Below are positions 2,121 to 58,134 of a DNA stretch of 64,000 nucleotides, piece by piece. A program made the position numbers and the translations under genes. The notes under the pieces are model-generated. The model made no database searches. It saw nothing but the letters and a program-made list of their open reading frames with translations, and was not told where the DNA came from. The first letter of the stretch is position 1. Every line of letters starts with the position of its first letter. The DNA is from Deltaproteobacteria bacterium (GTDB lineage: Bacteria; Desulfobacterota; Syntrophia; Syntrophales; JAFGHS01), in the NCBI GenBank assembly GCA_016930075.1, contig JAFGHS010000140.1, positions 676 to 64,675 on the forward strand, written 5' to 3'.

Positions 2121-3689
2121 CTATCTGGCAAAATCCGAAAACCGGGTTTCCCGAATCACAGTGACCTTGATTTGACCAGGATAAGTCATTTCCGCTTCAA
2201 TCTTCTTTACGATATCCTTGCAAAGCATAACGGCATCGTTGTCCGAGATCTTTTCATTCTCCACAAGGATTCTGATTTCACGGCCGGCCTGAATGGCAAA
2301 ACACTTATCCACGCCCTTAAAGGAGTTAGCAATGGTTTCGAGCCCTTCCAGGCGCTTCACATAAGTCTCAAGCATCTCTCTGCGGGCACCGGGACGGGCA
2401 GCGGACAGCGTGTCGGCCGTCTGCACCAAAACCCCCAAAAGGGAATTTGTCCGGCTGTCCTCATGGTGCGTCTGGATGGCCTGGACAATCCTCGGCGATT
2501 CACCAAAACGACGGGCATAATCGGCGCCGATCTCCGCATGGGTTCCCTCAATCTTAAAATCGACGGCCTTTCCGATATCATGAAGCAGCCCCGCCCTCTT
2601 GGCTTCCTTGATGTTCATCTTCAATTCCGCAGCCATGATACCCATGAGATGCGCCACTTCTATGGAGTGTTGCAGGACATTCTGGGAAAAACTCGTTCGG
2701 AATTTCAAACTGCCTATAAGGGTGATGATTTCCGGATGAATGTCATGAACCCCCAGATCGAAAGAGACTCGCTCACCCGTTTCCCGGATGATGGTATCAA
2801 CTTCCTCTTTGGCCTTTTTGACTATTTCTTCGATACGCCCCGGATGGATCCTCCCGTCCGTTATCAATCGCTCCATGGAGATTCTTGCCACTTCCCGTCT
2901 GATGGGATCGAAACTGGACAGGACAACCGCTTCCGGCGTGTCGTCGACAATCAGGTCTATTCCTGTCGCAGCCTCAATGGCCCGGATGTTCCTGCCTTCC
3001 CGGCCGATAATCCGGCCTTTCATTTCATCGCTGGGCAGATTGACGACCGATACCGTATTTTCCACGACGAAATCGCCTGCATAGCGCTGAATAGCATAGG
3101 CAATAATCTCCTGGGATTTTTTATCCGCCGTCCGTTTGGCTTCATCCTCGATCTTGCGTATGGTAAGCGCCGCGTCATGCTTTGCGGCCGTTTCCATGGT
3201 TGCCATCAGCTGCGCCTTTGCTTCCTCCTGAGACATGCCGGCAACCCTTTCCAGCAGTTCTTTTTGTTCTTCAATCATCCGGTTTATCTTGTCATTTTTT
3301 TCGTTAAGTTGATTTTCCTTGTTGATGAGGCCTTTTTCTCTATTGTCAAAAGCCGCCTCTTTCTGAGACAATACTTCACTTCTTTTTTCCAGATTTTCCT
3401 CTTTTGAGCGAATTCTTTTTTCTATAGCATCAAATTCCTGTTTTTTATCGGCCGAGTCTTTTTCAAACTCTGTTTTTATCTTGAGAAGACTTTCCTTTGC
3501 TTGAAGCATGGCTTCTTTTTTGATGGTTTCCGCTTCCTTTTTGGATTCATCAATGATCCTCGCAGAGAGGCTTTCCGACGACTCCAATTTCTTTCTCGAC
3601 ACTCTCTGTTTGATAATGTAACCTAACACCACACCAATAACCATGGAACCCATGATCATCCAGATGGTCATCATTATTGTATATGTCAA
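2121..3689 (-). CDS. rny: ribonuclease Y
   Basis: 522 aa: N-terminal TM helix, E/K coiled coil, KH motif [14 protein letters not shown] motif LLHDIGK. TTG start after GGGGG. Confidence 0.95.
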
Positions 3690-15760: not shown

Positions 15761-15906
15761 TGACGACCTCGTAAAAAGTCGTCACCCCGGCGAAAGCCGG
15801 GGTCCAGTGCTATTGTAAACACTTGATCCCGCCGTGGCGGGACTGGATACCGGCTTTCGCCGGTATGACGTGGCCGGTGACTTATTGACTTTTTACGAGT
15901 TCATCA
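15761..15906 (+). repeat. 146-bp MITE-like palindromic element, copy 1
   Basis: 136/146 identical by my hand count to 28091-28236. 17-bp imperfect terminal inverted repeats (TGACGACCTCGTAAAAA / TTTTTACGAGTTCATCA). Four internal hairpins, including inward-facing 28-nt units at 15780-15807 and 15843-15870. Confidence 0.8.
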
Positions 15907-28090: not shown

Positions 28091-28236
28091 TGACGAGATC
28101 GTAAAAAGTCGTCACCCCGGCAAAAGCCGGGGTCCAGTGCTTTTGTAAGCACTTGATCCCGCCGTGGCGGGACTGGATACCGGCTTTCGCCGGTATGACG
28201 TGGCCTGTGAGTAATTGAATTTTTACGAGATCATCA
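28091..28236 (+). repeat. 146-bp MITE-like palindromic element, copy 2
   Basis: Same orientation and architecture as 15761-15906. Flanked by ATAAA on both sides (28086-28090 and 28237-28241). Confidence 0.8.
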
Positions 28237-35281: not shown

Positions 35282-35369
35282 GTCATACCGGCACGTCACC
35301 CCGGTGGAAACCGGAGCGGTATCCCGTTTATAAACATTTATCTCCAGATTCCTTTTTTCACCGGAATGA
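35282..35369. repeat. degenerate pair of the 29-nt hairpin unit
   Basis: GTCATACCGGCACGTCACCCCGGTGGAAACCGGAGCGGTATCCC ... CCAGATTCC...CACCGGAATGA. Eroded copies of the CGTCA-CCGG-loop-CCGG-TCCAG unit. Confidence 0.4.
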
Positions 35370-50598: not shown

Positions 50599-50671
50599 CG
50601 TCATTCCGACGAAGTCCGAAATACAGGCATTTTATTAAACTGGATCCAGGATCGGGGTCCGGGATGACAGG
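50599..50671. repeat. degenerate inward-facing pair of the 29-nt hairpin unit
   Basis: CGTCATTCCGACGAAGTCCGAAATACAGG (50599-50627) and CTGGATCCAGGATCGGGGTCCGGGATGACAGG (50640-50671). Confidence 0.4.
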
Positions 50672-55102: not shown

Positions 55103-55399
55103 TTACTCCTTTTTTCCCTTTTTTCTGCTTTTTTTATGCCTTGCAAAAGACCTATTGACCAGACCTTCTTTGTCATAGGTGGACCAGAACGCCGCATCGG
55201 GCCTGCCGTCATCGATTTTCAATTCCATCTGCGCCGCCAGGTCCTTGACGGCCGGTCTCAGGACATTCTGAATGCATTCCGGAAGGTGACGCCCATTTAC
55301 CAGATGATTCTGAATACAGAGGACACAGTTGCCGCGGATAGGACATTCCTGCTGAGTACACGGACAATGCTGGTTCAGCGATATGCCATAATCTTTCAT
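55103..55399 (-). CDS. small Cys-rich protein (C-x-C...C...G-x-C-x2-C...H...LP-x-C pattern; DUF6485-like, number from memory)
   Basis: 98 aa from ATG 55399 (alternative TTG 55423 overlapping the recX stop). CPCTQQECPIRGNCVLCIQNHLVNGRHLPEC, with a K-rich tail. Confidence 0.6.
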   Translation of the reverse strand: MKDYGISLNQHCPCTQQECPIRGNCVLCIQNHLVNGRHLPECIQNVLRPAVKDLAAQMELKIDDGRPDAAFWSTYDKEGLVNRSFARHKKSRKKGKKE

Positions 55400-55419
55400 T
55401 TCGTACGCCACACCTTTTT

Positions 55420-55890
55420 TCAAAGATCCTTCAATCTCTCAAAGATAACATCTGCGGGAAAACCCCTGCCAACGAGCCATTGGTACAAACGGTGTTTCTC
55501 CCGGATATCTGTTTCTGTGCTTTTCCTGCGGCCGATTTTTTTTTGGATCAGTTTTTCCACAGCCGCCTTTTCGCTCAACTCCAAACGCGCTTCTTCTATG
55601 GCCCGGTCAATCGCCCCAGGAAGGATGCCCTTTTCCCGGAGACTGATTTCTATCCGCCGGTTTCCATACAATCTGTTTACGGCAAGGTTTCTTGCCCATT
55701 GTCCGGCAAAGGCGCCGTCGTCGAGATACTGTAGCTCGGCAAGTTTTTCTATGACTTGATGGATGACCTGTTCGGGAATCCCTTTTTCCCGCAGCTTATC
55801 GCGCAACTCTTTTTCGCTCCGCGCCCGGAGGGCAAGGAAGCGATAGGCTTTGTTCAAGGCTTTACCGACAGCCTCATCCGCCTCCGTCAT
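55420..55890 (-). CDS. recX: recombination regulator RecX
   Basis: 156 aa of repeated helical RecX modules, immediately downstream of recA. Confidence 0.9.
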   Translation of the reverse strand: MTEADEAVGKALNKAYRFLALRARSEKELRDKLREKGIPEQVIHQVIEKLAELQYLDDGAFAGQWARNLAVNRLYGNRRIEISLREKGILPGAIDRAIEEARLELSEKAAVEKLIQKKIGRRKSTETDIREKHRLYQWLVGRGFPADVIFERLKDL

Positions 55891-55892
55891 GG

Positions 55893-56909
55893 CTACTCTT
55901 CCTGCTTTCCCTTTTTAACCCCCAGCTTTTCCCGCACCTCTCCTTCGACCTGATTGAGAATGTCAGGATTTTCCTTCAGAAACGCCTTCGTGTTGTCCCG
56001 GCCCTGGCCGAGCCGGTCGCCCTTGTAGGAATACCAGGCGCCGCTCTTTTCGATGATGCCCCTGTCTGCCGCCAGATCAAGGATGTCGCCTTCTCTGGAG
56101 ATGCCTTCACCGAAGATGATGTCGAATTCCGTTTCCCGGAAGGGCGGAGCCACCTTGTTTTTGACGACCTTGACCCTTGTTCTCATACCGATGGTTTCCT
56201 GACCCTGCTTGAGGGCCGTCGTTTTCCGGATGTCGAGGCGCAGGGAAGAGTAGAATTTCAGGGCCTGGCCGCCCGTCGTTGTTTCCGGATTGCCGAAAAA
56301 GACGCCGATCTTCATGCGCAACTGGTTAATGAAGATGACCGTCGTATTGGATTTACTGATGCTGCCTGTGAGCTTGCGCAATGCCTGCGACATGAGACGG
56401 GCCTGGAGGCCCATCTGGGCATCTCCCATTTCTCCTTCCAGTTCCGCCTTGGGTACAAGGGCGGCGACAGAATCGACGACGAGGACGTCAAGGGCGCCGC
56501 TGCGGACGAGGGTTTCGGCGATCTCCAGGGCCTGTTCTCCTGAGTCGGGTTGTGAAATGAGCAGGTCGTCGGTGTTCACGCCGATGTTCCGCGCATATCC
56601 GACGTCGAGGGCGTGTTCGGCATCGATGAAGGCTGCCAGGCCGCCCGTTTTCTGCGCTTCAGCGACGATATGAAGGGCCAGGGTCGTTTTACCGCCCGAT
56701 TCGGGACCGAAGATCTCTACGATCCTGCCACGGGGAACACCGCCCGTGCCGAGGGCGATGTCGAGGCTGAGAGAGCCTGTTGATATGACTGCGACATCGG
56801 GAAGCTTCTCGCCGCCGCCCAGCCGCATGATGGAACCCTTTCCGAATTGCCGTTCGATTTGCGTTATCGCCAAATCCACTGCCTTTTCCCTATCCATCTC
56901 CGCCGCCAT
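55893..56909 (-). CDS. recA: recombinase RecA
   Basis: 338 aa with Walker [10 protein letters not shown] and canonical RecA sequence throughout. Confidence 0.98.
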
Positions 56910-56957: not shown

Positions 56958-56988
56958 ACGCCATACCGGCAAAAGCCGGTATCGAAAA
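56958..56988. repeat. solo copy of the 29-nt hairpin unit
   Basis: ACGCCATACCGGCAAAAGCCGGTATCGAAAA. Confidence 0.5.
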
Positions 56989-57079
56989 TACAAATGTCCT
57001 TAAAAATCTGGACACTGGTTCTCACTGGTGTGACAACAAGTTTTATATCTATTGTCCTTTAATCTTTATCTTTCCCACA

Positions 57080-57460
57080 CGTCATACCGGCGAAAGCCGG
57101 TATCCAGGAAATATAAATACTTACAACTTATATCATCGTATTATACAAATCCTGCCAATCAGGATTAACGGCTTCTATCAATTCGAGTTTCCGTGCTCTC
57201 TTCCATTCTTTCAGATTCTTTTCCCGTTCGATGGCGGATTGCATATTTTCATGCACTTCATACCAAACCAGATGATGTACGCAATAGCGTTTTGCAAATC
57301 CATCTACCAGATCGTTTTTGTGCTCCCATACCCGTTTTACGAGATCGGATGTCATACCAATGTATAGAGTGCCGTTGAGATTACTTGCCATAATATATAC
57401 GGCAGGGTTTTTGTCGAGCATTTATTTTTCCCCTGGATTCCGGCTTTCGCCGGAATGACG
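57080..57460 (-). mobile_element. putative small mobile cassette: GIY-YIG gene bracketed by inverted 29-nt hairpin units
   Basis: CGTCATACCGGCGAAAGCCGGTATCCAGG (57080-57108) and CCTGGATTCCGGCTTTCGCCGGAATGACG (57432-57460) are inverted copies lying 19 and 10 nt from the CDS ends. They interrupt the thpR-recA run. Confidence 0.4.
57128..57421 (-). CDS. GIY-YIG (URI domain, UPF0213/COG2827-like) nuclease family protein
   Basis: 97 aa; AVYIMASNLNGTLYIGMTSDLVKRVWEHKN... has the GIY...YIG spacing plus a conserved R/E and a C-terminal ...REKNLKEWKR. Confidence 0.85.
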   Translation of the reverse strand: MLDKNPAVYIMASNLNGTLYIGMTSDLVKRVWEHKNDLVDGFAKRYCVHHLVWYEVHENMQSAIEREKNLKEWKRARKLELIEAVNPDWQDLYNTMI

Positions 57461-57552
57461 ACCTTGATGGCACTTTTTAGTGTGATAAGACCGTTTCCCA
57501 ACTAGAATAACTGCAATTTTTCATGCTTCGTCGTGCCTCGCAGGCATGAGCG

Positions 57553-58134
57553 TTAGAAAGGAAAAACCTTCAGCTTTGTATACACCGCCCCGTCCGGTTT
57601 GAGATCGCTTTTGAAGAGAATGAGTTCTGATGCCTGAAATTCCCCGGCAGCGGCATTGCCTTCTTCGATAACCTTTCCGAGGCCGGCCATTCCCTGAGGC
57701 GACTTCACCCTCCCCAGCGTCAGATGGGGGCTGAAAGCACGGTCTTCCTTATCAAACCCGCATATCTGAAGACCCGCGTCGATTTTCTTCTGCAAGGCAA
57801 CCAGCCGCCCTACGTCGCCGGTGATGCCCAGCCAGATCACCCGCGGCCTGCCGGCATTGGGGAAAACCCCGATTTTTTGCACCTGCAAAGACAGGGAACT
57901 CAGGCCCCGCACCTGTTCATGAACCACGCCGCCGATGGTTTCCACAGCGTTCATGGGAATATCGCCGAAAAATTTCAGGGTAAGGTGGATGCCTTCGGGC
58001 CTTACCCAGCGGACGGCGCTGCCGAACTGCTTCTTCAGCCGGTTCTGTATGGCGGCGATGCCCCGCCTCACCTCTTCCGGCGGGTCGCAGGCGAGAAACG
58101 CGCGGACCGTCGCCGATTTGCTTGCCTCATTCAT
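57553..58134 (-). CDS. thpR: RNA 2',3'-cyclic phosphodiesterase (2H family, LigT/ThpR)
   Basis: 193 aa with two H-x-T-x motifs (HLTLKF, HLTLGR). Confidence 0.88.
   Translation of the reverse strand: MNEASKSATVRAFLACDPPEEVRRGIAAIQNRLKKQFGSAVRWVRPEGIHLTLKFFGDIPMNAVETIGGVVHEQVRGLSSLSLQVQKIGVFPNAGRPRVIWLGITGDVGRLVALQKKIDAGLQICGFDKEDRAFSPHLTLGRVKSPQGMAGLGKVIEEGNAAAGEFQASELILFKSDLKPDGAVYTKLKVFPF

Follow-up and report, generated by a model that had tools for sequence, protein, structure and literature searches.

A short gene in a 64,000-nucleotide window of a deltaproteobacterial genome (order Syntrophales, assembly GCA_016930075.1, contig JAFGHS010000140.1) encodes a small GIY-YIG nuclease and sits between two inverted copies of a hairpin-forming unit. 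The window, by which we mean the whole stretch of DNA analysed, is C20:676-64675 of a 3.8-Mb draft that comprises 192 contigs and is 92% complete. We read the locus as an Ssn-type module, in which a GIY-YIG nuclease is paired with its cognate hairpins of the SRM motif, and put the probability of this reading, with the mechanism and history described below, at about 0.78.

A GIY-YIG nuclease gene between inverted hairpin units

The ssn-type gene (57128-57421, minus strand; from the open reading frame (ORF) list and Pfam) encodes a single-domain protein of 97 amino acids. Its sole Pfam match is PF01541, GIY-YIG (E 5e-15, residues 7-78), and Pfam revealed no domain beyond it. The residues Y9, Y20, R30, H34 and E67 are intact, and all five are invariant in an 18-sequence family alignment. 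At an E value of 1e-8 or lower, the protein has at least 7991 homologue clusters. The TIGR01453 model gave 22 bits against a cut-off of 56, and searches of solved structures and NCBIfam with the protein returned nothing informative.

The bracketing units are the left CGTCATACCGGCGAAAGCCGGTATCCAGG (57080-57108, plus strand) and the right CGTCATTCCGGCGAAAGCCGGAATCCAGG (57432-57460, minus strand). Both fit the unit pattern with 0 mismatches, where shuffled sequence is expected to give 0 matches. The inverted 29-nt units had been placed 19 nt (left) and 10 nt (right) from the ends of the ORF, which proved correct to the base. The two differ by one compensatory T/A stem pair, and each folds, as single-stranded DNA, into a hairpin with 8 bp in the stem and GAAA in the loop (left, -8.7 kcal/mol, z -4.4; right, -9.0 kcal/mol, z -3.2). 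The CCAGG tail of the right unit abuts the ssn ribosome-binding site, GGGGA.

A third, solo unit (TACCGGCAAAAGCCGGTA, 56958-56988, plus strand) was also recognised in the original prediction. Its 8-bp hairpin is perfect and its flanking motifs have decayed, with CGCC in place of CGTC and CGAA in place of CCAG. It is missing in the sister genome G001 and does not fit the published SRM motif.

The unit is a dispersed and covarying repeat

Across the draft genome, the unit has 93 close copies, and a search by its 8/4/8 geometry gives 132. The most frequent stems are ATACCGGC (24 copies), ATTCCGGC (14), ATTCCCGC (14), ACCCCGGC (8) and ATTCCCGT (6). Among 88 distinct copies, 93% of the stem cells are paired, and changes on both sides affect 102 stem cells compared with 33 in shuffles, a value that 0 of 500 shuffles reached. 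When the register is slid, stem pairing falls to 19-43%. The compensatory stem changes that the original prediction saw in the two bracketing copies also occur among the units of the whole genome.

Inward-facing doublets, 19 in number, hold 38 of the 93 close copies (about 40 units by the 8/4/8 geometry), and most of these doublets are bounded by separate outer inverted repeats. Alongside the CCGGC type, the genome has about 25 units with a Neisseria-like core, of the ATTCCCGC/ATTCCCGT type and prefixed by TGTCA; examples lie at C15:22181-22207, C68:35-111, C100:26896-26972 and C105:63947-64023.

The genome-wide census found a single copy of the ssn family. The remaining GIY-YIG matches are UvrC and an unrelated 88-aa protein encoded beside a tRNA-Asn gene. 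The gene for the latter (C102:139-405, outside the window) lies directly 3' of tRNA-Asn(GTT) at 11-86, and its 3' end overlaps a partial tRNA duplicate consisting of the D-arm and the 3' half (~372-466). It looks like a tRNA-targeting GIY-YIG insertion with a regenerated target. As a candidate hairpin partner it was rejected: its family is a different one, SRM units are missing, and it has no bearing on the hairpins.

Correspondence with the published Ssn/SRM system

Chenal et al. (2025, Nat Commun 16:2388; PMC11893778) defined the Neisseria NTS (CGTCATTCCCGCGMAVGCGGGAATCYRG) and the more degenerate SRM motif, and showed that both are spatially tied to one gene family, ssnA (CDD cd10448). SRMs lie near 71% of ssnA homologues and on both sides of 42%, and 81% of SRM-rich genomes carry ssn. 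Neisseria meningitidis SsnA has 94 amino acids, with catalytic mutants at Y6, Y17 and E64. Four purified Ssn proteins bound the hairpin only as single-stranded DNA and cut that strand only, a few nucleotides upstream of the hairpin, leaving double-stranded DNA, RNA and the reverse strand untouched. Deletion of ssnA led to about five-fold more transformation with NTS-bearing DNA (PMC11893778).

The locus in the window corresponds to this description in several respects. With 97 residues in a single domain, the protein lies within the family's size range (<=150 aa). Y9, Y20 and E67 equal the N. meningitidis Y6, Y17 and E64 shifted by +3, a comparison made by spacing and not by direct alignment. 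The published SRM motif matches on both sides of the gene within 500 bp, at 57080-57107 (plus strand) and 57433-57460 (minus strand), 20 and 11 nt from the ORF. Genome-wide, the motif has 120 matches, compared with 15-24 in five first-order Markov simulations. The window module thus shares with Ssn a single domain of ~95 aa, the same Tyr/Tyr/Glu spacing, an inverted bracket of the form GTCA-stem-loop-stem-TCCAG, about a hundred motif copies and a very wide, patchy phylogenetic distribution. It differs from the Neisseria system in its stem, which is ATACCGGC/ATTCCGGC and not ATTCCCGC, in its host, an uncultured anaerobe that its nearest homologues place in the Syntrophales/Smithella neighbourhood and in which ComEC and DprA were undetected, and in that many of its units lie inside miniature inverted-repeat transposable elements (MITEs) with outer repeats of their own.

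The original prediction held that no such role had been described for small stand-alone GIY-YIG proteins. This was overtaken by the 2025 publication of the Ssn/SRM system, which already contains both the pairing of gene and hairpins and the analogy with REP/RAYT, so that the central idea is a re-discovery (PMC11893778). Our literature search found no later follow-up paper on SsnA, and nothing relevant on GIY-YIG proteins linked to MITE, REP, REPIN, RAYT or YhbQ.

Homologues and their hairpins in other genomes

A homologue is present in 17 of 41 genomes of the same order. At about 12 of the 22 order-level homologue loci, GTCA-stem-loop-stem-TCCAG units stand inverted on both sides within 10-110 bp, and the stems vary from genome to genome (ATTCCCGC, ATACCGGC, ATTCCTGC, ATTGTCCAA, ATCCTGAA). 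A wider set covered 79 loci in public genomes, which span at least 15 phyla and encode proteins of 54-73% identity. A full bracket with perfect stems occurs at 27 of these loci and at least one unit at 44. By the published SRM motif, both sides are occupied at 17 of the 79 and at least one side at 39, against a background of 0.06 SRM per kb at more than 700 bp from the homologues. The strict Neisseria NTS core was found in the flanks of 12 homologue loci whose proteins share 55-66% identity. At the genomic unit density, a bracket on both sides would arise by chance with a probability of ~1e-5. Bracketing by unit pairs is thus systematic among the homologues, and these sequence comparisons support the view that the gene and the hairpins are partners.

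Gene and units also vary together. Unit counts in the 41 relatives, taken with a fixed-geometry pattern, range from 0 to 114, and a strong ssn match is present in 10 of the 15 genomes with 14 or more units compared with 4 of the 26 with fewer (Fisher p = 0.0017). This is the positive association that the original prediction had asked about. Its converse concern, abundant units in genomes that lack the gene family, applies in part: UvrC is the only GIY-YIG protein in the unit-rich relatives G003 (114 units), G028 (67) and G037 (49) and in the closed genome G008 (14 units). The overall picture parallels the published survey, in which ssn is present in 81% of SRM-rich genomes (PMC11893778).

The protein tree mixes phyla, with 29 label changes compared with a minimum of 14, and its supported cross-phylum pairs include Bacilli with Legionella and Calditrichota with Chloroflexota. 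The window protein falls with Syntrophaceae and Smithella sequences. One metagenome-assembled genome (MAG) carries two 95%-identical cassettes at separate loci, which become homologous precisely at the left unit and remain so until ~45 nt past the right unit. The complete 1.48-Mb chromosome OZ245366.1 (L047, L050) contains two ssn copies that are 1 nt apart in sequence, with ~124 kb between them, and each occupies a doublet within a long tandem array whose other doublets are empty. Filled and empty doublets of this chromosome have the same inner flanks, CCAGTATT and CCAGTTGAATACTGG; the spacer of an empty doublet is CCAGTATTnnTTAnCCAGTTGAATACTGG, and a filled doublet consists of the same flanks with the ORF exactly in the spacer. 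A similar-looking filled and empty pattern was seen at L102. At L073, L053 and L066, ssn lies between complete doublets and not inside one.

History of the thpR–recA junction

In the window, ssn is preceded by thpR (LigT-type 2',3'-cyclic phosphodiesterase; 57553-58134, minus strand) and followed by the co-oriented recA (55893-56909, minus strand), both assigned from the ORF list and Pfam. Of 29 order-level relatives, 28 have thpR and recA side by side, and 26 have a spacer of 34-301 bp between them that holds neither an ssn gene nor an SRM; with the cassette, the spacer measures 646 bp in the window genome and 504 bp in the same-genus genome G001. The claim that the gene interrupts a thpR–recA run is thus confirmed by comparison of empty (26) and occupied (own and G001) sites.

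The cassette is ~380 bp in size and is common, among the relatives, only to G001. From unit to unit the two cassettes are ~78% identical, and their outer flanks differ by indels. The right unit of G001 carries an alternative compensatory pair (ATACCGG..CCGGTAT), and its ssn copy has a 1-nt frameshift. Because 26 junctions are empty and both same-genus genomes hold the cassette, the insertion predates the genus: the cassette was inserted once into a compact thpR–recA junction, in an ancestor of the genus, and has been inherited vertically since. The original prediction had considered the possibility of a vertically inherited gene beside unrelated units; vertical inheritance agrees with the shared site in G001.

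Public metagenomes were available as assembler contigs. In a groundwater run, one contig is 95.5% identical to the cassette; recA and the spacer are found on another contig, which stops at the left unit. No excised form of the locus was seen in the metagenome contigs. Apparent joints between 57107 and 57433 all have 6-26 other letters between the two sides, and therefore represent other doublets of the community and not excision products.

Three further observations were made. In the relative G016 (L131:2560-3065), the thpR–recA spacer holds a different ORF (2611-2994, minus strand) of 127 aa with a signal-peptide-like N-terminus and SRM-like hairpins on both sides, which points to a recurrent insertion hotspot, be it the junction itself or, more generally, cargo bracketed by hairpins. 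A partial second recA-like stretch (C99:2672-3184; residues 163-333, 83% identity) may be a strain variant or contamination of the bin. Between alaS and recX, the window contains an ORF for a cysteine-rich protein of 106 aa (55103-55423, minus strand), which scores 22.7 bits against DUF6485, below the cut-off of 24.

The 146-bp elements have ends of their own

Two copies of a 146-bp MITE-like element, here called type A, lie in the window on the plus strand at 15761-15906 (SRM units at 15780-15807, plus, and 15843-15870, minus) and 28091-28236 (units at 28110-28137, plus, and 28173-28200, minus). As the original prediction stated, both hold the same inward-facing unit pair at a spacing of 35 nt. 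At 15761, the layout consists of an outer inverted repeat, TGACG..TCGTAAAAAGTC, the two inward SRM units and a central small hairpin, and the 146-nt element folds as a single long hairpin (-46 kcal/mol, z -8.3). The eroded pairs reported at 35282-35369 and 50599-50671 are degenerate yet recognisable; within the second, 50640-50669 (minus strand) still matches the SRM motif.

Eleven copies of type A and five or more of a second type, B, have the outer inverted repeat TGAYG..TCGTAAAAAGTC in common. The 12-mer TCGTAAAAAGTC has 206 matches genome-wide (<=1 mismatch) and stands at many contig ends, with contigs starting inside it. Its copies bound at least three MITE subfamilies, with ~107, 118 (type A) and ~126 bp between the 12-mers, and the inner modules of the other subfamilies include SRMs of the ATTCCCGY type and a palindrome of the GTCATTTCGA type. 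Neisseria likewise has composite intergenic repeats with a hairpin core as a module, in its dRS3 repeats and intergenic mosaic elements (NIMEs); unlike these, the composites here are MITE-like, bounded by TGAYG..TCGTAAAAAGTC, with sizes of ~135, 146 and 155 bp.

The terminal inverted repeats of the MITEs, which an autonomous insertion sequence should share, were not found on the cassette. In its left flank, the best match to TCGTAAAAAGTC has a score of 5, reached by 1886 of 2000 shuffles, and in its right flank an 8-nt match is reached by 77 to 375 of 2000; neither is significant. The cassette and the MITEs have the 28-nt units in common. The only further likeness is that of the 19-nt stretch separating the left unit from the stop codon to the spacer of type-B doublets, with 15 of 19 identities (13 of 2000 shuffles equal this). 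No transposase bounded by TCGTAAAAAGTC repeats was found. A candidate full-length insertion sequence at C171:15890-17904 (a plus-then-minus pair, 2003 bp) was rejected, as it has no recognisable transposase; read from translations alone, its interior encodes a cupin and a barnase/barstar-like pair.

Because the MITEs have independent outer ends, the 146-bp elements are probably not simple deletion derivatives of the ssn cassette. The MITEs may be moved by another enzyme, with SRMs as modules. Most doublets have outer repeats of their own, so that the spread of the units need not depend on Ssn. The proposal that the gene-bearing unit is autonomous and the 146-bp elements are its derivatives is partly contradicted by the independent ends and stays conjectural.

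Proposed mechanism and role

By analogy with the characterised members of the family, the protein would bind the GTCA-stem-loop-stem-TCCAG hairpin only in single-stranded DNA and nick the bound strand, at a position a few nucleotides to the 5' side of the hairpin. Taking SsnA as the guide, the left nick is predicted ~3 nt 5' of the unit, near 57077 on the plus strand, and the right nick near 57463 (minus strand). Both predicted positions lie just outside the cassette, on opposite strands, and the ~100-130 genomic units would be recognition sites of the protein. Its most likely role, judged by the same analogy, would be the cutting of hairpin-bearing single-stranded DNA, whether incoming or replicative, which would modulate recombination.

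No promoter or terminator signal above chance was found in the thpR–recA spacer, and none between ssn and recA. The gene is probably co-transcribed with thpR and recA; for recA in particular, co-transcription is plausible from the shared orientation and the signal-free spacer.

Several points weigh against reading the locus as an Ssn-type module. The first concerns its placement in the family: the protein was placed by its domain, the spacing of its catalytic residues and its flanking motifs, and is best called a putative Ssn. In a hunt for Neisseriaceae references, DNA uptake sequences (DUS) were counted among 401 genomes of their order and six DUS-rich genomes were taken; these contained 0 ssn homologues and only YhbQ-like small GIY-YIG genes. 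The latter loci (L153-L155) have no SRM flanks, and the window protein is therefore not of that small GIY-YIG family. YhbQ/UPF0213 (cd10456) shares with it a stand-alone GIY-YIG domain of ~90-110 aa and shows no detectable similarity to it at E <= 1e-3.

Other points concern its specificity and function. A single sequence-specific Ssn may not recognise the ~25 units with the TGTCA prefix, which may be orphans of a second Ssn that was lost or is unassembled. The frameshift in G001 reflects either weak selection for function at this site or an assembly error. No sign of expression was found; metatranscriptome contigs match only the repeat units. Finally, the families ComEC (PF03772) and DprA (PF02481) were undetected in the 92%-complete genome, with positive controls. 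Their absence is unusual for a bacterium. A competence-linked role is therefore left without an obvious substrate here; the transformation role known from Neisseria may not apply, which argues for some function beyond the control of transformation.

Possible mobility of the cassette

The arrangement recalls repetitive extragenic palindromic (REP) sequences, their doublets (REPINs) and the REP-associated tyrosine transposases (RAYTs). As in those systems, a single-copy nuclease gene is flanked by inverted short hairpin repeats, and copies of that repeat are scattered, often in inverted pairs that form a single long hairpin when the DNA is single-stranded. As with RAYTs, the nuclease would, by analogy with Ssn, act on single-stranded hairpins. 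RAYTs are, however, IS200/IS605-like HUH/Y1 enzymes with a covalent intermediate, whereas the protein here is a hydrolytic GIY-YIG nuclease in which no Y1/HUH domain was found; unlike REP/RAYT, moreover, the gene is strongly horizontally distributed. The module resembles REP/RAYT in layout and is not a member of it. With no known strand-transfer chemistry, a cut-and-rejoin mechanism cannot be assumed.

A tentative possibility is that hairpin-ssn-hairpin cassettes form a still undemonstrated class of self-propagating element. The GIY-YIG nuclease, specific for single-stranded DNA and hydrolytic, would nick just beyond each of the inward-facing hairpins, replication or recombination by the host would copy the cassette or the ORF into other doublets or intergenic sites, and empty doublets would be targets or remnants. 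The insertion at the junction, the doublets of OZ245366.1, the paralogues that start at a unit, the mixing of phyla and the missing ComEC and DprA all fit such a process. Hydrolytic nicks on opposite strands, each 5' of a hairpin, are what the known chemistry provides, and by themselves they do not give transposition.

Doubtful, in our view, is the account of the original prediction, in which hairpin-ssn-hairpin is an autonomous element whose nuclease, in the manner of RAYT with REP/REPIN, also mobilises the short doublets or increases their number. It would explain a cassette inserted where 26 relatives have an empty junction, the likeness of the inner-left 19 nt to the type-B spacer, the intermixed phyla with their well-supported cross-phylum pairs, the two 95%-identical MAG copies with homology from the left unit on, the ssn copies placed at two loci of OZ245366.1 inside doublets otherwise identical to empty ones, and the link between unit count and gene presence. 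It sits poorly with one gene copy against ~100 or more units, with four unit-rich relatives without ssn and with the gene at the same site in a sister species. The cassette and the 146-bp elements lack common outer ends, and the MITE repeat also bounds subfamilies with other hairpins. No target-site duplication was seen, and the metagenome contigs show other doublets and no excised form of the locus. The published enzyme, moreover, only nicks one strand 5' of the hairpin, with no known strand-transfer activity (PMC11893778).

A homing-like process, in which nicks by an empty doublet are repaired from a filled one so that the ORF is copied into the spacer, would make the doublets its targets, and we consider it unlikely. 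GIY-YIG nucleases do include classical homing enzymes, the cassette has the inward-facing geometry of the short doublets, and the filled and empty doublets of OZ245366.1, and similarly of L102, have common inner flanks. Yet deletion of the ORF by microhomology gives the same filled and empty pattern, the predicted nicks lie outside the doublet and not in its spacer, only one of about 19 doublets is filled in the window genome, and ssn lies between complete doublets in L073, L053 and L066. Homing endonucleases of the I-TevI type carry an additional DNA-binding domain and reside in introns, inteins or phage intergenic sites; neither applies to the gene studied here.

The reading of the hairpins as ordinary terminators or regulatory palindromes unrelated to the nuclease gene accounts for stable stem-loops in intergenic positions and is effectively refuted already: the stems have no following T-run, a terminator scan was empty at the units, the bracket, of probability ~1e-5 by chance, is found around homologues of many phyla, where the non-palindromic flanks GTCA and TCCAG are conserved, and published binding and cleavage tie the family to the motif (PMC11893778).

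Implications

The partnership of gene and hairpins is already known (PMC11893778). New here are the insertion at the thpR–recA junction, the single ssn copy, the MITE superfamily with ends of its own and the four ssn-free relatives that are rich in units. Taken as an Ssn-type module, the locus adds one Ssn/SRM pair, found in an uncultured anaerobe and with a stem of the CCGGC type; this is of modest value, and its main use would be as a candidate new specificity for single-stranded-DNA tools.

In their Discussion, Chenal et al. liken NTS-ssnA-NTS to an insertion sequence, draw the comparison with REP/RAYT and domestication, and leave open whether Ssn is a selfish spreader of its own hairpins or a host device (PMC11893778). 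The window genome and its relatives bear on this question. They offer a dated insertion, a decayed sister orthologue and unit-rich genomes free of ssn, together with SRM units in MITEs with independent ends, in a host apparently without DNA-uptake machinery.

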